Positions 3,451 through 56,826 are shown, counted from the stretch's first letter. The stretch is 64,000 nt of DNA from an uncultured Verrucomicrobiota bacterium (GCA_903907995.1 CAIVQH010000046.1:212396-276395), one strand, 5' to 3'. The notes: generated by a model from the letters alone, not told the origin. Numbers and translations: made by a program.

Positions 3451-6288
3451 TCAGGCCGGCGCCAGCCGCGAGATCGCCGCCATCAGGCGCAGCTCAATCT
3501 CCTTCTGCCGCACGGGATCGGTGATGCGTGACCCACCGACTTCGGTGACGTAAAAGCTGTCGATGGCCGCCCCCTTTTCCGTGACGATCTTGGCCAGGGC
3601 CAGGTCGAGGCCAAGCTCGCTGAACTCCGTCGAGACCGCGAAGAGAAGGCCAACCCGGTCTTCCGTCTCGATGTCGATGATGGTGCGGTTGAGCGAGGTG
3701 GAATTGTCGAAGCGGATGATGGTGCCCAGCGATTCGCCGCCCACCGCGCGATACAGCGGCTGGTAGCCGGTGCCCTTGCCCAGCAGCCGCGCGGGGTCGG
3801 CATCCCGCACCAGCACATCCAGCGCGATCTTCTCGAAGCGCTCGCGCACGGCGGCGACGGGCAGCTTGCCGGAGCGCGCGTCCACCACGAAAAAGTCGTC
3901 GAGCACGACGCCGTCGGCCCGTGTGTAAATCTGCGCGGCCATGATGTTCAGGCCGGCGGCGGCGAGGGCACCGGTCAGCTTGGCAAAGAGGCCGCTGCGA
4001 TCCCAGGTGCAGATGTGCAGGCCCGTGTAGCCCCGGTCCGGTTCGTCGTGCCAGACGAAGACCGGTTCCAGCGCCCGGTCGTCCTCGGTGAACTGCAGGT
4101 GCATGAACCGGTGCGCCAGCGTGAGGTCGCGGGCCACGGCCCGGGCGTTGTGAATCTGGAAATAACGCGGCGGCAGCCCGGTGAAATGGGCGTCGATCTC
4201 CTCGTCGGAAAAGGTCTTCGGCAGCACGTCGCGGACCTCCTCGCGCAGCAGCTCGAGCTGGCGGCGTTCAGCGCGGATGAATTCGGTGCTGCCGCCCAGC
4301 AGGTCGCGGGTCTTGCGCCAGAGCTGCCAAAGCAGCGAGTCCTTGAAGCCGTTCCAGAGCGTGTCGCTGGTGCCCATCGAATCGGCGAAGGTGTGCAGCG
4401 TCAGCAGGTCGAGCGTCTCCTGGTTTTTGATCTGGCGGGCGAACTGTTGGATGACCTCCGGATCTTCCAGATCACGCCGCTGGCTGACCTGCACCATCGC
4501 GAGATGCTGCTCAATGAGCAGGCGCAGGGTCGCGGTGGTGGCGGCGTCGAGATGCAGGCGGTTGGAGGCGCGGATGGCCAGGCGGCCACCGACAATCTCG
4601 TGCCGCTCGCCCGGGATGGCCTTGCCCGAATCGTGCAGGAGCAGCGCCAGGTACAGCACGTAGGGCCGCTCCAGCCGCTGGAAGATTTCCGTGTAGCCGC
4701 TGGCCGGAGTCGTGGCGGCCTCCCAGACCTGATCAAGCTTGGTCAGGCAGACCAGGGTATGCTCATCCACCGCGTACTGGTGGTAGAACTCGTGCTGGAC
4801 GAGATTCGTGAGCTTGCCGAACTCGGGCATGTACTTGCCGAGAAAGCCCACCTCGTGCATCGCCCGCAGCGCCGGGGCGACATTCCCGCGCGCGTTCAGG
4901 ATCTCGATGAAGGTGTCCCGCACGTGGCGGGTCATCATGAAGCTGCGGTCCACCAGGCCGGACGCCACCGACTGCCGCATCAGCTGCGCCAGGTCCGGAT
5001 GCAGGGTCAGCCCGCGCTGCTGCAGGTAGAGGAAGGCCCGCATCAGCCGGTGCGGATCCTCCCGGAACACACCACGGGAACCGGCGAGCAGCTCGCTGCC
5101 AACGACCCGGAAGCCATCCAGCTCGGTGGCGGCCACGGCTGGCGCGGCCCGGCGGCCGACAAACCGGCGCAGCCCCCAGACCGGCGACGGCACCAGCGCC
5201 AGGCGCTGCTCCAGGGTGCGGGTGATGAGATAGAGATTGCGCGCGTGCGTGTAATAGTCGCGCATGAACTCCTCAACCCGGAGCCGGGGCGAACGCGCGG
5301 AGTAACCCAGCCCCGACGCCACGGCGGGCTTCACATTGGCGGCCAGCACGTCCACCGGACGCTCGGTGACATAGTGGAGCTCGTTGCGCGTGCGGAGCAG
5401 GTAGTCGTAGGCGGCCTCCAGCTGCTTGCGCTCCGCCGCACCGATCTGCTCGGCGGCCTGCAGTTCGGCGGTCGTGCGCAGCCCCAGCTTGAAAAAGGTC
5501 ATCCAGAGCAGGTTCTGGTAGTCGCGCAGGCCGCCGCAGCCGTTCTTGATGTTCGGCTCCTGCATGGCTGCCGAATCGCCGTGCTTGGCCCGGCGGGTCT
5601 TCTGGTCGGCGAGGCGCAGCCGGATGTATTCGTCCTCATGGCCATGCACGCACTTGGCCACGAACTTCGTCTGCATCTCCTGGAACAGCTTCTCGTCGCC
5701 AGTGATCAGCCGGGCTTCCAGCAGCGAGGTCTTTGACTGCATGTCGGTGTTCGCCACGGCGATGCAGTCCTCGACGGTGCGGACCGCGTGGCCGACCTTC
5801 AGGCCCATGTCCCAGAGGGTGTAAAGCAGGCCGCTGGTCCACTCGCCCAGGGTCGTCTGGGTTTTCTTGCCCGGATCGATCCCGCCGGCGTGCAGGAACA
5901 TCAGGTCGATGTCGCTGCACGGGTTCAGCTCCCCCCGGCCGTAGCCGCCAAAGGCGACCAGGGCGATGCGCGGGGGCTTGCCCTGGGCGGGAAAGGCCCG
6001 CTGCACGGTCTCGAAGATGTGCCGGATCATCACATCCATGACCGCCGCCCGGGCGCGACAGACTGCCAGGCCGCTCTCCCCGCCGCGATGGAGGATCTTC
6101 AGGCGGTGGGATTCCTCCTTGAGGAATCCCTTGTAGCGCGCGAGTTCCTCCGCCGGCTTGCGGCCGGGAGGAACCGGCAGGCGCTTGTCGGCGTTGGCCT
6201 CAATCTTGGCGAGCAGTGCCTTCACGCGCGGCGGAAGGTGGGGGTTTCGCCGGTCGGGTTCAAGTGCGCGGGTGGTCTCCCTTCCCAA
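3451..6288 (-). CDS. glnD: [protein-PII] uridylyltransferase / uridylyl-removing enzyme
   Basis: 945-aa ORF with nucleotidyltransferase motif GGYGRGELNPCSDIDLMFL, HD domain (HLAMVQ...LLHDSGK) and two C-terminal ACT-like segments. Start is non-ATG (TTG at 6288), so exact N-terminus uncertain. Confidence 0.85.
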   Translation of the reverse strand: MGRETTRALEPDRRNPHLPPRVKALLAKIEANADKRLPVPPGRKPAEELARYKGFLKEESHRLKILHRGGESGLAVCRARAAVMDVMIRHIFETVQRAFPAQGKPPRIALVAFGGYGRGELNPCSDIDLMFLHAGGIDPGKKTQTTLGEWTSGLLYTLWDMGLKVGHAVRTVEDCIAVANTDMQSKTSLLEARLITGDEKLFQEMQTKFVAKCVHGHEDEYIRLRLADQKTRRAKHGDSAAMQEPNIKNGCGGLRDYQNLLWMTFFKLGLRTTAELQAAEQIGAAERKQLEAAYDYLLRTRNELHYVTERPVDVLAANVKPAVASGLGYSARSPRLRVEEFMRDYYTHARNLYLITRTLEQRLALVPSPVWGLRRFVGRRAAPAVAATELDGFRVVGSELLAGSRGVFREDPHRLMRAFLYLQQRGLTLHPDLAQLMRQSVASGLVDRSFMMTRHVRDTFIEILNARGNVAPALRAMHEVGFLGKYMPEFGKLTNLVQHEFYHQYAVDEHTLVCLTKLDQVWEAATTPASGYTEIFQRLERPYVLYLALLLHDSGKAIPGERHEIVGGRLAIRASNRLHLDAATTATLRLLIEQHLAMVQVSQRRDLEDPEVIQQFARQIKNQETLDLLTLHTFADSMGTSDTLWNGFKDSLLWQLWRKTRDLLGGSTEFIRAERRQLELLREEVRDVLPKTFSDEEIDAHFTGLPPRYFQIHNARAVARDLTLAHRFMHLQFTEDDRALEPVFVWHDEPDRGYTGLHICTWDRSGLFAKLTGALAAAGLNIMAAQIYTRADGVVLDDFFVVDARSGKLPVAAVRERFEKIALDVLVRDADPARLLGKGTGYQPLYRAVGGESLGTIIRFDNSTSLNRTIIDIETEDRVGLLFAVSTEFSELGLDLALAKIVTEKGAAIDSFYVTEVGGSRITDPVRQKEIELRLMAAISRLAPA

Positions 6289-15816: not shown

Positions 15817-16113
15817 TTGAGCAAGCCTGTTCCAGTGCCGGTTCCGCCTGCCACGACGCCCCCCGCATCGGGGTTGTCGCCGCTCAGCCGTGTCCGCGCC
15901 GGATGCGTGGTCATCGTGAAGCAGCTCACGGCGGATCATGAGGTAAACCAGCGCCTTCGCGAGATGGGTTTCGGCGAGGAGCAGCGCATCAAGGTCATCA
16001 CGCTCCAGAACAATGTCCTGTGCCAGGTCTGCAACGCCCGCCTCGGCCTCAGCGCGAAGCTGGCGGAAAACATCCTCGTGCAACCGGTCGCACCGATGCG
16101 GCTGGCGGCGTGA
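15817..16113 (+). CDS. feoA: FeoA-family protein (first of two); start codon uncertain (TTG at 15817 or GTG at 15907)
   Basis: [34 protein letters not shown]... is an SH3-like FeoA domain; no in-frame ATG. Confidence 0.6.
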
Positions 16114-16120
16114 GCGGAGC

Positions 16121-16205
16121 TGAATTCAAAATTTGAAATTCGGAATTCAAAATTTCCAAGCACGCCCGGGTACGTCTCATTTTGAATTTTAAATTCCAAA
16201 TTTTG
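16121..16205. promoter_or_regulatory. AT-rich palindromic repeat element between the two feoA genes (candidate operator/attenuator)
   Basis: gaattcaaaatttgaaattc-ggaattcaaaatttcc ... gcccgggtacgtctc ... ttttgaattttaaattccaaatttt: inverted AT-rich arms around a GC core, 8 bp upstream of the feoA2 ATG. Confidence 0.4.
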
Positions 16206-16213
16206 CGTCTGGC

Positions 16214-16447
16214 ATGAACCCCCTCCCGCTGTCCTCCCTCACCCCCGGCACGAAAGCCGTCGTGACCGAAATCCGCGTGCCGGTGGAGCACCGCGGCCGG
16301 CTGCTCGAGATGGGCCTGCTCGTCGGCACCACGGTGGAGCTGGTACGGTTCGCCCCGATGGGTGACCCGGTCGAGATCAAGATTCGGGGATACAACCTCT
16401 CGCTGCGGAAACACGAGGCGGAGCAGGTCATCGTGAAACCACAATAA
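16214..16447 (+). CDS. feoA: FeoA-family protein (second copy)
   Basis: MNPLPLSSLTPGTKAVVTEIRVPVEHRGRLLEMGLLVGTTVELVRFAPMGDPVEIKIRGYNLSLR, a canonical FeoA. Confidence 0.75.
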   Translation: MNPLPLSSLTPGTKAVVTEIRVPVEHRGRLLEMGLLVGTTVELVRFAPMGDPVEIKIRGYNLSLRKHEAEQVIVKPQ

Positions 16448-16460
16448 TCCGGAGGGTTGC

Positions 16461-16763
16461 ATGACTTGGCGCGTTGCAATTTGGCTGATTTTTGTGGTGC
16501 CGGGATTCCTATGTGCCGCGCTCAATAGCTGGTTGGCATTTGGCCGGCCAATTAGCCTAAAGCTTCAGCGAATGGATGCAGGCTTTGTGTCTCCATTGCC
16601 TCTTCTCGGAGCCGTACCCTTGCTTGTGGGATTGATTAGCGTTCCGATTTTGAAGGCGAAAATACCAGCTGCTGTGGTCGTGGGGATTTCGTGTCTCGGC
16701 CTGATGGATTTGCTGGCGCTAATGCTCGCGAATTCTCTTCACGCCTGGAGCCAACGGCGTTGA
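16461..16763 (+). CDS. small hydrophobic membrane protein (hypothetical, low-GC)
   Basis: 100 aa, three predicted TM segments, ~52% GC; lies between feoA2 and the IS element. Confidence 0.3.
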   Translation: MTWRVAIWLIFVVPGFLCAALNSWLAFGRPISLKLQRMDAGFVSPLPLLGAVPLLVGLISVPILKAKIPAAVVVGISCLGLMDLLALMLANSLHAWSQRR

Positions 16764-16943
16764 CGCAATATGGTTTCATTCTCTCTTCAAGCATCTAAGC
16801 GATCTGAGGCAGTTCCACCTTCGCCGCCATCCCCACCGGCACTCCGATTACGCGGAAGGACCATGCTTTTCAAGGCCCTTACTTGGCAGCACTTTACTCT
16901 GGAAGACTGACCGCGCCCCGATGCCTCCAGATTTCAATCACCA

Positions 16944-17612
16944 AGCGCTGAAAGCGCGTCCAAGTATTGCCTGGGGTGAAGCCCCAGGTTTGCGGCCCCG
17001 AAAACAGACCAAGGGCTGAAGGCCCGTCCGAACCATGTCGCAATCCCTCGCCAACAATCTGATTCACCTGGTCTTCTCGACCAAGGTGCGCCGGCCCCTG
17101 TTGCGCGATGACGAGCGCGACGGACTCCACGCCTACATGGGTGGTGTGCTCAAGAATCACGATTGCCACTCGTTGGAAATCAACTCGGTAACCGACCACG
17201 CCCATGCCCTTTTTGTGCTGAGCAAAAACCTCGCCTTGGCGAAGGCAATCGAACTGGTCAAAGGGCTTTCCTCAGCCTGGCTCAAGGACCAGGGCGCTTG
17301 GTATTCGGACTTCCACTGGCAGACCGGCTACTGGGCTTTCAGCGTGAGCCAAACCCATGTCGGACCTCTGCGCCGCTACATTCGCGGCCAGCAGAAACAT
17401 CATGAGAAAATTAGCTTCCAGGATGAGGTGCGTCGCCTGAGCCAGAAGAACGGAATCGAACTCGATGAGCGCTATGCGTGGGAGTGAATTTACGGCGCCG
17501 ATATTCTCGGACGGGCCTTCAGCCCTTGCCAACTTACTGGGGCCGGGTACCTGGGCCTTCGCTCGCGATGCTCGCTCCAGCCCAGGCATTACTCGGGTGG
17601 GCTTACAGCCCG
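16944..17612 (+). mobile_element. IS200/IS605-family (Y1 HUH transposase) element with REP-like GC hairpin ends, inserted between feoA and feoB
   Basis: tnpA ORF flanked by inverted sequences gggctgaaggcccgtccga (17013-31) / tcggacgggccttcagccc (17507-25) and by distal hairpins gcctggggtgaagccccagg (16969-88) / cccaggcattactcg (17581-95). Both ends recur without the ORF at 50736-50962. Confidence 0.6.
17035..17487 (+). CDS. tnpA: IS200/IS605-like Y1 (HUH) transposase TnpA
   Basis: 150 aa: LIHLVFSTKVRRPLL (N-terminal beta strand), HUH motif DHAHALFVL, GYWAFSV, catalytic-Tyr helix YIRGQQKHH; same order and spacing as IS200 TnpA. Confidence 0.75.
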   Translation: MSQSLANNLIHLVFSTKVRRPLLRDDERDGLHAYMGGVLKNHDCHSLEINSVTDHAHALFVLSKNLALAKAIELVKGLSSAWLKDQGAWYSDFHWQTGYWAFSVSQTHVGPLRRYIRGQQKHHEKISFQDEVRRLSQKNGIELDERYAWE

Positions 17613-17673
17613 AGCTTAGCTTGTTCGGAGCCGCTGTGAATCACGTCCTGGTTGTGACCTTGTTCAAAAATCG

Positions 17674-19965
17674 ATGAGCACGGCCTCTTCCACCTTCACC
17701 GCTGTCCTGACCGGCAACCCAAATTGCGGGAAGACCACGCTCTTCAACGCGCTCACCGGGTTGCGCGCCCGGGTCGGCAACTACGCAGGCGTCACGGTCG
17801 AGCGTAAGGAGGGGGCGATGCTCGGTGCGAACGCGGCGCATCCGGTCACGCTGCTCGATCTGCCGGGCACCTACTCGCTCAGCCCCCAATCGCTCGATGA
17901 GCAGATCGCGCGCGATGTGTTGTTCCAGCGCTTGGCCGACGTCCCCGAGCCCAGCCTCGTCATCGTGGTCGTGGACGCCTCGAACCTGCAGCGCAACCTC
18001 TACTACGCCACGCAGGTCATCGAGCTCGGCCATCCGACCTTCCTGGCGTTGAACATGGTCGATGTAGCCCGCGCCAACGGCCACGAGATCGACCTTGAAA
18101 GCCTGTCCACCGCCCTGGGTGTGCCCGTGTTCCCCCTAGTCGCCAGCGAGAACGAGGGGATCACGGAGCTGAAGGAAGCAGTAAACCGGGCGGCCAGTAA
18201 GCCAGCCGGCCAGAAAGCCAGCGGGCCAGCGACGTCCGGTGCCGAGTCTGGCTTACTGGCTCACTCCCCTGCTGGCTTACTGGCTGACTCGCTCAGCGAG
18301 CCGCGTTCTTTTCAGGAGCTTCCGGAAAATTTCGGCCACGAGGCGCAGGTCATCGAGGAGATGCTGGAGAAGTTTTTCCCGCACCGAGAACGGCTGGCCT
18401 CTGCCGAGGCGCTGCTCATCCTGAGCGACGACAAGGTGCTGAACGCGCAGCCGGATCTCTATCCCGCCGCGATTCGCGAGGCGGTCACGGCGGCGCGTGC
18501 GCGGTTGGAGGCCGCGGGCGTGGATTGGCGCAGCGCGGCCATTGAGGCGCGTTATGCGCGCGTGTTCGCCATCGCCCAGCACGTCACCACGGAGACGGTC
18601 GTCGAGGGCGAAAATTTTTCGGACCGGCTCGACCGCATCCTGACCCACCGCGTGTGGGGTCTGCTCATTTTCATCGGCATCATGGTGACGATGTTCGTCT
18701 CCATCTTCTTCTTCGCGCAGCTGCCGATGGACGCGCTCGATGCCGGCGTGGGCTGGCTCGCCAGCCATGTCAGCGCCGCCCTCGGCCAGGGCGATCTGCA
18801 GGATCTGGTGGCCAACGGCATCATCAAGGGCGTCGGAGCGGTCGTGGTGTTCCTGCCGCAGATCTGCCTGCTGTTCATGTTCATCTCGCTGCTGGAGGAT
18901 ACCGGCTACATGGCCCGCGCCGCGTTCCTGATGGACCGCCTGATGTCGCGCGTGGGCCTGCATGGCAAGAGCTTCATCCCGATGCTCTCGTCGTTTGCGT
19001 GCGCGATCCCCGGCATCATGGCGACGCGGACTATCGAGTCACCCAAGGACCGCCTGGTGACCATCCTCATCGCCCCGCTGATGAGCTGCTCCGCGCGCCT
19101 GCCGGTTTACACGGTGCTCATCGCGGCGACCATCGGTGGCGGCGCCCTGCGACGCGGGCTGACAATGACCGCGATGTATCTGCTCGGCATCGTGGGCGCG
19201 CTGGGCATGGCGTGGCTCTTCAAGCGCACCCTGCTGAAGGGCGAGCCGCCGCCACTCATCCTGGAACTGCCCCCCTACAAGCGTCCCGTGCTGAAGGTCG
19301 TGCTGCGCCACATGTGGGACCGCTCGAAACTCTTCCTCCGGCGCGCCGGCACGGTGATTCTGGGCATCAACATCCTGCTCTGGTTCCTGGTGACGTATCC
19401 GAAGTCCCCGGAGGTTGCGCAACGCTACGCCCAGCAGCGCGCGATGTTCGAGAGTTCCGCGTTCGTGAACGACGAACAACGGAAAGCCCATGACGAGGCT
19501 GCCGACCAGCTCGCGAAAGAAGAGTCAGGCGAACTGCTCCGTCACAGCTTTGCCGGCCGGCTCGGCCACGCGATTGAACCGGTGATCCGGCCGCTCGGCT
19601 TCGACTGGAAGATCGGCATCGGCATCGTCGCCTCGTTTGCGGCGCGGGAGGTGTTCGTGAGCACGATGTCGGTGGTTTATAATGTCGGCGAGGTGGACGC
19701 AAAGGATTCCACCGCCACCGCCGGACTGGCCGGCGTCATGCAGAAGGAGCGGCGGGCTGACGGCACTCCGGTTTACACCGCGCTGACCGGCATCACGCTG
19801 ATGGTCTTTTACGTCTTCGCCATGCAATGCGTCAGCACCGTGGCCATCGTGCGGCGGGAGACGAACTCCTGGAAGTGGCCGGCCTTCCAGTTTGCCTACA
19901 TGACGGGACTCGCCTGGGTGCTGGCTTTGGTCTGCCATCTGGGTGGGCGCCTGCTCGGGTTCTGA
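17674..19965 (+). CDS. feoB: ferrous iron transporter FeoB
   Basis: N-terminal G-domain GNPNCGKTTLFNALTG, DLPGTYSL; large polytopic C-terminal permease; 763 aa. Confidence 0.9.
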   Translation: MSTASSTFTAVLTGNPNCGKTTLFNALTGLRARVGNYAGVTVERKEGAMLGANAAHPVTLLDLPGTYSLSPQSLDEQIARDVLFQRLADVPEPSLVIVVVDASNLQRNLYYATQVIELGHPTFLALNMVDVARANGHEIDLESLSTALGVPVFPLVASENEGITELKEAVNRAASKPAGQKASGPATSGAESGLLAHSPAGLLADSLSEPRSFQELPENFGHEAQVIEEMLEKFFPHRERLASAEALLILSDDKVLNAQPDLYPAAIREAVTAARARLEAAGVDWRSAAIEARYARVFAIAQHVTTETVVEGENFSDRLDRILTHRVWGLLIFIGIMVTMFVSIFFFAQLPMDALDAGVGWLASHVSAALGQGDLQDLVANGIIKGVGAVVVFLPQICLLFMFISLLEDTGYMARAAFLMDRLMSRVGLHGKSFIPMLSSFACAIPGIMATRTIESPKDRLVTILIAPLMSCSARLPVYTVLIAATIGGGALRRGLTMTAMYLLGIVGALGMAWLFKRTLLKGEPPPLILELPPYKRPVLKVVLRHMWDRSKLFLRRAGTVILGINILLWFLVTYPKSPEVAQRYAQQRAMFESSAFVNDEQRKAHDEAADQLAKEESGELLRHSFAGRLGHAIEPVIRPLGFDWKIGIGIVASFAAREVFVSTMSVVYNVGEVDAKDSTATAGLAGVMQKERRADGTPVYTALTGITLMVFYVFAMQCVSTVAIVRRETNSWKWPAFQFAYMTGLAWVLALVCHLGGRLLGF

Positions 19966-33169: not shown

Positions 33170-33622
33170 AGGTCAGCCACGCGCCGTGCCTTGACGGCAC
33201 GGTACGTTGGTGCGCGACGGCACGGGGCCGTCACGCGGTTTCATACGGGGTGAACGTGGGGTTCCTGCACACGCAGGATCCCAGAGGATCGCCCTTCCAG
33301 GTGCCGACGGAGTTAGCTGACGGGCTTGGTCTTGGAAGTGACCTTGGCCCCCGGTTACCCGGTGCCGTGCGCCCCCTCCCCGACTTGCGTCGGGGAATTT
33401 GGTTCCCCCGCGCCGGCTTGCAGGAAGGCAAACCGGCTTAGGCTGCTACAGACGGCCGACGAGTGTCACCGGCCGGCCCGCCTGTCAATGGCAATCGGGA
33501 CAAGGCATCAAGCCTGCGCATCCACTGTCGGCTTCTACGCTGGAACTCCCGTCTCCTGAATCCTGTCTCCTGTCTTCTTCCGATTGAACCTTTGCTCGCC
33601 CGCCGCATTCCACTGGATACAA

Positions 33623-49454: not shown

Positions 49455-50459
49455 TTACTTCAGCAATTCCTCGGCAATCTGCACGGCGTTGAGCGCGGCG
49501 CCCTTGAGGAGCTGGTCGCCGGAGACCCAGAAGCACAGGCCGTTGTCCAAAGCGCAGTCGAGCCGTAGGCGACCCACGGCGCAGTTGTAGCGGCCGGAAA
49601 GGTCGAGCGGCATCGGGTAGGCCTTGTTGGCGGGATCATCCACCACGTCAAGCCCGGGGGCCTTGGCCAGCACGGCGCGGGCGGCCTCGACCGTGACGGG
49701 CTTTTCAAATTCGGCGCTTACCGCCACGGAATGGGCCCGGAACACGGAGACGCGCACGCACGTCACCGAGGCGCGCAGGCCCGGGTGATGCATGATCTTG
49801 CGGCCCTCGTTCTCCATCTTCATCTCCTCCTTGGTGTAGCCCGTTGGCAGGAACGAATCCACCTGCGGGATCACGTTGAAGGCGATCTGGTGCGGATAGA
49901 CCTCCTTGGTGATCGGCTGGCCGGCAGAGAACTGCCGCACCTGCTGGTCGAGTTCCTCCACGGCCTTGGCCCCGGTGCCGGATACGGCCTGGTAGCTGGA
50001 GGCGATGACGCGCTTCACGCCGAAAGCCTGGTGCAGCGGATACAGCGCCATGAGCGTGATGATCGTGGTGCAGTTCGGGTTGGCGATGATGCCCTTGTGG
50101 AGCTTCACGTCGCCCGGATTGATTTCGGGCACCACGAGCGGCACATCCGGGTCCATGCGGAAGGCGGAGGAATTGTCCACGACCACGCAGCCGGCGGCGG
50201 CGGCGATGGGGCCGAACTCCTTGGAAATGCTCCCCCCCGCGCTGAACAGGGCGATGTCGATGCCCTTGAACGAGTCTTTGGTCAGCTCGGTGACGGTGTG
50301 CTCGACGCCCTTGAACTTGAGTTTTTTGCCCACGGAACGGGCGGAGGCGAGCAGCGTGAGCTTCCCGACCGGGAAGTTCCGCTTCTCGAGCGTTTCAATC
50401 ATTTCCACGCCGACGGCGCCTGTGGCGCCGACAACGGCCACGTGCGGAGTGCGATTCAT
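49455..50459 (-). CDS. asd: aspartate-semialdehyde dehydrogenase
   Basis: VAVVGATGAVG (NAD(P) fold), ...NPNCTTI (active-site Cys), ...SSYQAVSGTGAKAVEEL. Confidence 0.9.
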   Translation of the reverse strand: MNRTPHVAVVGATGAVGVEMIETLEKRNFPVGKLTLLASARSVGKKLKFKGVEHTVTELTKDSFKGIDIALFSAGGSISKEFGPIAAAAGCVVVDNSSAFRMDPDVPLVVPEINPGDVKLHKGIIANPNCTTIITLMALYPLHQAFGVKRVIASSYQAVSGTGAKAVEELDQQVRQFSAGQPITKEVYPHQIAFNVIPQVDSFLPTGYTKEEMKMENEGRKIMHHPGLRASVTCVRVSVFRAHSVAVSAEFEKPVTVEAARAVLAKAPGLDVVDDPANKAYPMPLDLSGRYNCAVGRLRLDCALDNGLCFWVSGDQLLKGAALNAVQIAEELLK

Positions 50460-50735
50460 AAGGGAGGCGGAGACTAGGAATCGCCGGCCGACTGTCGAGG
50501 GGAAGTTTTCGGGAATTTGGGGGCGCCTGTTGCCTCAAAAGTAATGACACCGGGGGGAGGCGGCAGGGGGAGGCAGGATAAGGACGTTGACTCAAAAAGG
50601 ATGGCACCGGCTACGGAAAGGCATGTCGATGAGCCGAAAGGTAGCCGAGGAACTGTTGCCGCGACTGCGGCAGCGGTACGTGGAACGCGGGCCGTGCTCC
50701 CTGCCCATGAACCTTCCATACATCTCAGGGGCCGC

Positions 50736-50962
50736 AGCGCTGAAAGCGCGTGTGAGTAATGCCTGGGGTAGAGCGAACACCGTGAGCGGAGCCCCAGGGA
50801 GAAGCTCCTTTGGACTGGTCTGAGGGCTGAAGGCCTGACTCAAGTGCCCCACCGCTCTCGGACGCGCTTACAGCGCTCGACCCTTTTGGCTCAGTTAATC
50901 TGGGGCTGCGCTCGCGCGGCTCGCTCCACCCTAGGCATTACTCGAACAGGCTTTCAGCCCTA
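50736..50962. mobile_element. MITE: transposase-less copy of both ends of the IS200/IS605-like element at 16944-17612
   Basis: Left part (agcgctgaaagcgcgt...taatgcctggggtagagcg...ccccaggg...gagggctgaaggcc) matches 16944-17031. Right part (ctcggacg...ttaatctggggctg...cgctcgc..gctcgctccaccctaggcattactcg..ggctttcagccc) matches 17507-17612. ~470-bp tnpA segment absent. Confidence 0.55.
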
Positions 50963-51106
50963 CCGATGGGACGACAAAGCGTGTGGCGATGTCGCTGAAT
51001 AAAAACCCATTCGAGCAGGCCAGCATCGCCAATCCTGCAGCCTCCACGAAGGCAAGCCCGAGGATGGCCAGGTGTGGAGTTCGATTCATGACCGGCAGGG
51101 AACGCT

Positions 51107-56752: not shown

Positions 56753-56826
56753 TGGCCGATGGTGTAATGGCAGCACAGGCGACTTTGACTCGCCTAGCCA
56801 TGGTTCGAATCCATGTCGGCCAACCA
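56753..56826 (+). tRNA. tRNA-Gln (anticodon UUG), CCA encoded
   Basis: Manual fold: acceptor tggccga/tcggcca (U1-A72), D-stem gtgt/gcac, anticodon stem ggcga/tcgcc with loop ctTTGac, T-stem catgg/ccatg with loop ttcgaat, discriminator A, CCA. Confidence 0.8.

Follow-up and report, generated by a model that had tools for sequence, protein, structure and literature searches.

A Y1-type endonuclease gene bracketed by inverted hairpin repeats in the feo operon of an uncultured Verrucomicrobiota bacterium: a probable REPtron-like unit tied to its locus

Organisation of the feo locus

We analysed 64,000 nt of DNA from an uncultured Verrucomicrobiota bacterium (GCA_903907995.1 CAIVQH010000046.1:212396-276395), referred to here as the window, and counted all coordinates from its start. 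In its iron transport (feo) operon, a gene for a 150-residue Y1 HUH/Tyr endonuclease (tnpA) lies between two feoA genes and feoB, with a structured repeat on either side of it in inverted orientation. An earlier note on this DNA had taken the segment for an IS200/IS605-like element that disrupts the operon. From comparison with related loci (designated L006, L008 and so on), we consider it probable that the segment is an old, locus-bound unit resembling a REPtron, which inserted into the 5′ end of feoB and was afterwards lost or exchanged through recombination. The order on the + strand is feoA1, an AT-rich palindrome, feoA2, a variable segment with an open reading frame (ORF) called ORF100, the Y1_Tnp gene tnpA and an intact feoB. 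The features are as follows (REP, repetitive extragenic palindromic):

15817-16113, + strand: feoA1 (Pfam FeoA, 4e-11; 98–100% amino acid identity in L006 and L008)
16121-16205: imperfect AT-rich palindrome in the feoA1–feoA2 spacer, with 27-nt arms and a 25-nt loop; contains GAATTCAAAATTT twice
16214-16447, + strand: feoA2 (Pfam FeoA, 4.7e-22)
16448-16942, + strand: variable segment of 495 nt from feoA2 to the left repeat, containing ORF100
16448-16812, + strand: lineage-specific variable slot with ORF100, 52.6% GC
16461-16763, + strand: ORF100, a hydrophobic ORF of 100 amino acids; no family match, may not be coding
16813-16882, + strand: decayed relic of the feoB 5′ end (direct-repeat search; local alignment against shuffles)
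16943-17031, + strand: left REP-like unit, short form (inverted-repeat search, unit alignment, covariation)
17035-17487, + strand: tnpA, gene of the 150-residue Y1 HUH/Tyr endonuclease (Pfam Y1_Tnp, PF01797, 6.6e-21)
17507-17612, − strand: right REP-like unit in its long form, oriented opposite to the left one (inverted-repeat search, unit alignment, covariation)
17613-17673, + strand: 61-nt spacer before feoB with 49% GC; conserved in part in L006 and L008
17674-19965, + strand: feoB, intact and full length (TIGR00437, 1.8e-160), starting 61 nt past the right repeat
50732-50965: tnpA-less inverted doublet of repeat units, REPIN-like, in the intergenic gap after asd

Searches with Pfam, TIGR00437 and the encoded proteins confirmed the layout given in the earlier note, in which the two feoA genes are followed by a hydrophobic ORFan of 100 residues and tnpA before feoB. 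The distance from the element to feoB, put at 60 bp, was measured as 61 nt. The start codon of feoA1 is uncertain, and the predicted protein has 68 to 92 residues depending on the gene caller. The figure of ~52% GC for the inserted DNA held for the part with ORF100 only; 16448-17673 as a whole has 56.4%, which still makes it the 1.2-kb stretch of lowest GC in the window (mean 64.9%, sd 2.2).

The ratio of non-synonymous to synonymous substitution rates (dN/dS, Nei-Gojobori) of feoB was 0.12–0.15. The gene is thus constrained and undamaged, which contradicts the view that the feo operon is disrupted. Since feoB is intact and constrained, it probably remains functional and the unit would matter little for iron transport; nothing in the analysis ties the enzyme functionally to iron uptake. 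The suggestion that the hairpin ends act as terminators or supply an outward promoter was not borne out either. A consensus scan of the + strand across the locus yielded no promoter or terminator, the repeat hairpins are devoid of T-runs, and no consensus promoter was found in the 61-nt spacer. Because the genes share one strand and no terminator was found, read-through into feoB from the feo promoter across the unit is the simplest and most likely expectation.

Structure of the repeat units

The GC-rich hairpins noted at the two ends of tnpA are indeed inverted: the arms 16978-17031/17507-17560 and 16947-16982/17574-17609 are 78% complementary. They are not isolated hairpins, however. Each end of tnpA is a copy of one ~105-nt unit of three hairpins (H1, H2 and H3), and the two copies are mutually inverted. 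The unit follows the pattern H1 GSGC-TGWAA-GSSC, a 12-nt linker, H2 CCTGGGS...SCCCAGG, a variable linker and H3 GGGC-TGAAG-GCCC. In the left unit, H1 is GCGCTGAAAGCGC, the 12-nt linker contains GTAT, H2 is CCTGGGG..CCCCAGG and H3 is GGGCTGAAGGCCC. In the long form, H2 encloses GGAGCGAGC..CGCGAGCG. The left H3 ends 9 nt upstream of the tnpA ATG, and its partner begins 25 nt past the stop codon.

For covariation analysis, we aligned 24 units from 11 loci. The three helices were 95.3% paired, and eight of the 15 pairs changed on both sides; at two positions, for example, G-C was replaced by C-G in nine sequences. Neither the observed pairing nor the covariation score was matched in any of 500 shuffles, and pairing fell to 9–52% when the register was slid. 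The hairpins are therefore structures under selection, whether as single-stranded DNA or as RNA. When the repeat arms were folded one sequence at a time, the result was unremarkable (z between −0.6 and −1.5), and structure was judged by covariation instead. The right unit was 90–95% identical among three species, with most differences in the H2–H3 linker. Seventeen of the 24 units carried the tetranucleotide GTAN, placed 2 nt 5′ of helix 2.

The H1-linker-H2 part of the left unit (16944-16988, − strand) aligned to the full 46-nt Rfam model of the Acido-Lenti-1 RNA motif (RF01687; Weinberg et al. 2010, PMC2864571) with 28.4 bits. Both consist of two short G+C-rich hairpins ~12 nt apart. As the family has a gathering score of 37, the repeat falls short of it and is not a member; the Acido-Lenti-1 motif may itself be a repeat of a similar sort.

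The Y1 protein and its family

Alignment of the window protein with the TnpA structures of ISDra2 and IS608 (PDB) placed the HUH histidines at H55 and H57 (DHAHALF) and the catalytic tyrosine at Y115 (RRYIRGQ), followed by Q119. Among 31 aligned homologues, uniformly of 150 residues, D54, H55, H57, W95, Q96, Y115 and H122 were invariant, and Q119 and H123 nearly so. The intact HUH motif and catalytic tyrosine described from the sequence alone are therefore real, and the doubt raised at the time, that the tyrosine might be missing on careful alignment, is settled by the presence of Y115.

A search of 5.8 billion proteins returned 1,611 homologues at E ≤ 1e-10; nearly all of the best 120 of these were exactly 150 residues long. 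Their sources annotate them either as 'IS200/IS605 family transposase' or as 'REP element-mobilizing transposase RayT'. The best-scoring NCBIfam model was that of IS200 (NF033573), with 51.8 bits against a cut-off of 55. Among 72,556 plasmids, no more than two carried a homologue, at ≤35% identity.

Judged by the published signature, the protein falls into TnpA-Y1 subclass 1.2 (Quentin, Siguier, Chandler & Fichant 2018, PMC6006769). The signature of this subclass consists of DH[IV]H, WQ and Y---Q--HH at a median length of 148 residues, with 1.7 copies per genome (PMC6006769). The window protein shares DHxH, WQ, Y---Q--HH, a length of ~148–150 residues and the conserved C-terminal tail, as well as low copy number and the lack of IS200-type ends. 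It differs in the middle residue of the HUH motif, which is Ala where the subclass has Ile or Val. The subclass was found mainly in Cyanobacteria and Bacteroidetes and is listed without REP sequences; Verrucomicrobia are not mentioned (PMC6006769). Here, in contrast, both the window gene and five distant homologues, 54–65% identical (L011, L012 (Limisphaerales MAG, metagenome-assembled genome), L021, L022 and L025), are flanked by inverted repeats with the H1/H2 motifs. Inverted structured repeats flanked the gene in every lineage examined.

In L022 and L025 (1-3453), two lineages of another clade, the gene order DUF6786-MFS-tnpA (MFS, major facilitator superfamily) is conserved. This arrangement is a second case of locus-bound inheritance in the family.

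Residence, loss and exchange at the feo locus

The unit occupies the same site in the same orientation in six other lineages (L006, L008, L020, L016, L019 and the P0005 contig; FeoB 70–88% identical). TnpA is 98% identical in L008–L010 and 89% identical in L006, L007 and L015 (MAG YR3_bin-1454, 'uncultured Verrucomicrobia'). The L006- and L008-group loci align with the window at 88–91% DNA identity across kdsA, sod and feo. TnpA of L016, L019 and L020 is 81–83% identical to that of the window; FeoB of L016 and L019 is 70–71% identical, and the L020 contig ends before feoB. The L016 contig (JBIIUN010000078.1) has been assigned to a Candidatus Kapaibacterium (Bacteroidota) bin, but its feo locus, TnpA (82.6%) and repeats are typical of the verrucomicrobial clade; it is probably mis-binned.

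The dN/dS of tnpA was 0.09–0.13 (Nei-Gojobori), which indicates purifying selection comparable to that on feoB. Its synonymous divergence (dS) from L006 was 0.44, and that of the neighbouring genes 0.19–0.46. The possibility, raised earlier, that tnpA is an ancient and fixed feature was thus borne out in part: the same tnpA is found in the same place with high identity in relatives. Its composition is not normal, however. In all three species tnpA has 57% GC and a third-position GC content (GC3) of 0.72, against 65% and 0.85 in its neighbours.

Nor is the unit fixed. The uninterrupted feoAB locus that the earlier note proposed to look for exists in several relatives. In L027 and L028 (FeoB 75–78%) the order is sod-feoA1-feoA2-feoB with a gap of 3 nt (TGA-CGC-ATG), and in L030 (FeoB 72%) the feoA2–feoB gap is 55 nt. 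L031 (FeoB 86%), whose flanks are 92–96% identical to those of the window and L008, contains an unrelated ORF of 89 residues and neither repeat nor tnpA; this locus overturned the idea that the unit is fixed in the genus. Since related genomes without it exist, the element is an insertion in evolutionary terms. In a FeoB tree, the bearers formed two non-sister groups, each with an element-free sister.

Between the window (16951-17400) and L008 (5917-6366), a tract of 450 nt comprising the left arm and most of tnpA is 96–100% identical, against a background of ~88–90%. This tract accounts for the low tnpA dS of 0.097 between the two and suggests recent recombination or gene conversion between the two species. 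Taken together, these comparisons point to a unit that is old and tied to the feo locus but not fixed there, and that has been lost, handed from one relative to another by homologous recombination, or both.

Duplication of the feoB 5′ end and the variable slot

Two features that the earlier note did not describe are the relic of feoB at 16813-16882 and the repeat doublet at 50732-50965. The meaning of the relic is clearest from L016 and L019. In these loci a truncated feoB, 47 codons long as far as GNYAGV, runs directly into H1 of the left arm; its ATG overlaps the stop codon of a preceding ORF, ORFX (TGATG), and a complete feoB lies past the right arm. The duplicated stretch (approximately codons 5–47) amounts to 126 nt in L016 and 98 nt in L019 (duplicate at 5085-5227, − strand, and 3617-3765, respectively). 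The window relic corresponds approximately to feoB codons 5–28 over 71 nt with two indels, and its alignment score of 51 compares with a maximum of 25 in shuffles (0 of 500). It lies 60 nt from the left arm, as it would if the copy had once extended to codon 47. No such relic was detectable in L006 or L008.

The frame of the truncated feoB (feoB′) is open through the whole left arm and stops 1–13 nt before the tnpA start in L016 (4856-5227, − strand), L019 (3617-3997) and the P0005 contig. This could be translational coupling or chance in G+C-rich DNA. A test for concerted evolution of the L016 and L019 feoB duplicates had too few informative sites to tell.

Upstream of the relic, the content of the slot differs between lineages: ORF100 in the window, ORF94 in L006 (3097-3381), ORF89 in L031 (2719-2988), ORFX of 141 residues in L016 and L019 (3192-3617 in L019), and nothing in L008 and L020. 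All of these ORFs are small and low in GC, ORF100, ORF94 and ORFX having ~53–55%. ORF100, ORF94, ORF89 and ORFX showed no homology to one another, nor did the window slot to the DNA of ORFX. ORF100 had no Pfam or NCBIfam match and found only itself among the 5.8 billion proteins; ORFX gave a weak match to DUF4279 (E = 0.11). Judged from these comparisons, the low-GC DNA left of the unit is a separate hypervariable slot followed by a decayed feoB duplicate.

Copy number and gene-less doublets

The exact protein was found on 18 contigs from several samples, with an identical feo context on all 18. A tblastn search of the window revealed no second tnpA copy, and no tnpB was found. A strict pattern derived from the four window arms matched the window four times, against 0.00 expected. 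The matches outside feo belong to the doublet at 50732-50965, which was also recovered by BLAST and nhmmer of the window. It lies in a 1.2-kb gap after asd (49455-50459, − strand) and is inverted like the feo pair, with ~30 nt and no gene between its H3 hairpins. It matches L013, a doublet from a sister species, at 87% identity, and the flanks of the two share nothing.

In MAG YR3_bin-1454, four repeat loci were present, namely feo and three orphan inverted doublets (L013, L014 and L018), with tnpA at feo only. The strict exact repeat pattern, run on one genome per species, gave six loci, a lower bound rather than a copy number, and a metagenome scan with TnpA peptides gave three. The orphan doublets lie at varied sites with no common flanking sequence. 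They thus appear at different sites in different species, as would be expected of elements mobilised in trans.

Interpretation and comparison with known systems

A REPtron consists of a TnpA-REP/RAYT gene with REP/REPIN sequences on both sides (reviewed in PMC5581495 and PMC6006769). The unit is like REPtrons in that a single-copy, non-multiplying Y1 HUH/Tyr gene under purifying selection is bracketed by inverted structured repeats, the repeats are also dispersed as gene-less inverted doublets, and the taxonomic distribution is patchy, with losses. It is unlike them in its Y---Q--HH motif in place of Y---NP, in the apparently low copy number of the repeat, in the 105-nt composite of three hairpins without a GT[AG]G foot, and in its location within an operon, beside a duplicated piece of a gene. 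The primary studies of REPtrons, TnpA-REP and RAYT are reportedly those of Nunvar (2010), Bertels & Rainey (2011) and Ton-Hoang (2012).

IS200/IS605 elements are multi-copy, with near-identical copies; their left and right ends are distinct, lie on one strand and contain no inverted repeats, and tnpB is often present. With IS608 and ISDra2 (TnpA-Y1 subclass 1.1) the unit shares the fold and catalytic residues, as judged by alignment, and hairpins beside the gene. Neither the multi-copy state nor distinct ends nor tnpB were seen. In architecture, then, the unit is that of a REPtron or RAYT-REPIN system; in sequence its protein is not a class 2 TnpA-REP, and the unit is not an IS200/IS605 element.

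The chemistry of IS608, ISDra2 and TnpA-REP on hairpins in single-stranded DNA is established (PMC6006769, PMC5581495). By analogy, the Y1 enzyme would recognise, cleave and rejoin its own hairpins in single-stranded DNA and would mobilise doublets in trans, while the gene itself would not multiply. The unit probably came into the operon at an early date, in the 5′ part of feoB and after approximately codon 47; this 5′ part would have been directly duplicated in the process, which left a complete feoB downstream. From then on the unit would have been inherited with the locus, at times deleted and at times exchanged between relatives through homologous recombination; a clean deletion would result if the feoB direct repeats recombined with each other.

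Several observations weigh against this interpretation. The protein scored 24.1 bits with the NCBIfam model REP_Tyr_transpos (NF047646), far below the cut-off of 80, and carries the class 1 motif Y---Q (YIRGQQKHH) rather than the Y---NP of known TnpA-REP proteins. The canonical GT[AG]G foot was present in one of the 24 units only. Few doublets were found: one orphan in 64 kb, and three orphans by the strict pattern in the 90-contig MAG. Classical REP/REPIN families number tens to hundreds of copies, and because the present family is low-copy by comparison, active mobilisation is unproven; this is the weakest point of the analogy with REPINs. The single-copy status of tnpA derives from the 18 contigs, the window and one MAG. 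The patchy presence among close relatives, together with the tract shared by the window and L008, does not agree with simple fixation and vertical inheritance. Finally, Y1 transposases are, to our knowledge, not known to make target duplications, and the feoB duplication of 100–130 nt is therefore unexplained for an element of the Y1 type.

We considered three other explanations. That an IS200/IS605 insertion sequence recently transposed into feo, disrupting or uncoupling feoB, would agree with a Y1_Tnp protein with intact HUH and Tyr whose best NCBIfam model is IS200, with a GC content below that of the host (57% versus 65%), with the empty sites in relatives and with the near-identical 450-nt tract in two species. 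The IS200 score is nevertheless under the cut-off, the gene stands at one locus on all 18 contigs without tnpB, and its two ends repeat one unit in inverted orientation, where such an element would have distinct left and right ends on the same strand. The position is orthologous down to 70% FeoB identity, the dS from L006 is like that of the neighbours with dN/dS at ~0.1, and feoB is intact and constrained. We regard this explanation as improbable and largely refuted, and the IS label of the earlier note does not stand. Insertion into the 5′ region of feoB might also have been site-specific and have happened independently more than once, with a duplication each time. The two non-sister bearer clades with their element-free sisters would follow directly from this, as would the identical left junction (GNYAGV/codon 47) in L016 and L019, with which the spacing of the window relic is compatible. 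No other insertion of a tnpA-bearing unit was seen, however, orphan doublets share no common flank, and no new mechanism is needed for the pattern if the unit was lost by recombination between the direct repeats or transferred by homologous recombination. Repeated insertion is in our judgement the least probable of the three.

The unit could, alternatively, have been co-opted into feo regulation. In the mRNA, its hairpins would then determine the feoA:feoB ratio by acting as stabilisers, attenuators or processing sites; or the direct repeats of the feoB 5′ end would turn the unit into an on/off cassette driven by recombination, its tnpA being expressed under iron limitation. Consistent with such a role, the unit shares its strand with feo across short gaps and without a terminator, the hairpin stems are 90–95% conserved although synonymous divergence is ~0.4, and this TnpA lineage is always found at the feo site (seven lineages). 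The open frame of feoB′ through the left arm in L016, L019 and the P0005 contig points the same way, and the feoB′ copies upstream have decayed less rapidly than neutral sequence would. The repeats and homologous genes, however, also occur at unrelated loci, downstream of an MFS gene and beside cellulase genes, so that recognition by the enzyme would explain the conservation of the hairpins. Close relatives, moreover, manage without the unit. We think co-option unlikely.

An old REPtron-like unit resident at feo thus remains our preferred reading. Going further, we tentatively propose, as a notion that is itself rather doubtful, that subclass 1.2 owns a composite three-hairpin REP family in Verrucomicrobia, that its gene persists as a locus-bound cassette, and that the long feoB duplication both preserved feoB and supplied the direct repeats enabling precise loss and transfer. 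If the cassette is real, a Y1 element would persist without transposing itself. For the biology of domesticated transposases, the unit at feo links a Y1 subclass reported to lack REP sequences to a structured, covarying repeat family, in a phylum outside the published surveys. It also bears on annotation: the family is labelled IS200/IS605 or RayT yet passes neither curated model, and an IS label would wrongly mark the feo operon as disrupted. The empty site, the unit only, the unit with an intact feoB duplicate and the unit with a decayed relic form a natural allele series for the persistence of an element at a locus.

The AT-rich palindrome and other features of the window

The spacer between feoA1 and feoA2 comprises 100 nt with 39% GC. 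The palindrome within it, read in the earlier note as a candidate metal-responsive operator, is real: its arms (16127-16153/16179-16205) are 85% complementary. It was not among the best window-wide matches to four Fur/DtxR/Zur consensus sequences. The Rfam scan, which covered this region and the entire window, gave no match on it, its motif was found nowhere outside this spacer in the window or in the retrieved loci, and single-sequence folding was unremarkable (z = −0.8). The palindrome is also present in L008 and L031, and in L006 both arms are altered yet still complementary. It is absent from L019, L027 and L028 and is thus limited to the immediate clade of the window. L020 has an unrelated GC-rich palindrome at the same position (404-505; 33-nt arms, −63.7 kcal/mol, z = −8.3). 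A conserved metal-responsive operator is not supported, in that no consensus match rose above background, presence was patchy and L020 carried an unrelated replacement. The palindrome may rather be an insertion that forms a hairpin, or a structural part of the transcript; either agrees better with the data.

In L006, an extra gene of the SMI1_KNR4 family (95-712) adjoins kdsA; it is not found in the window. Elsewhere in the window, the Rfam scan located a c-di-AMP riboswitch of the ydaO/yuaA type (RF00379) at 33287-33454 on the − strand, with 47.3 bits against a gathering score of 38, and a tRNA gene at 56753-56823 (Rfam tRNA, 62.8 bits).

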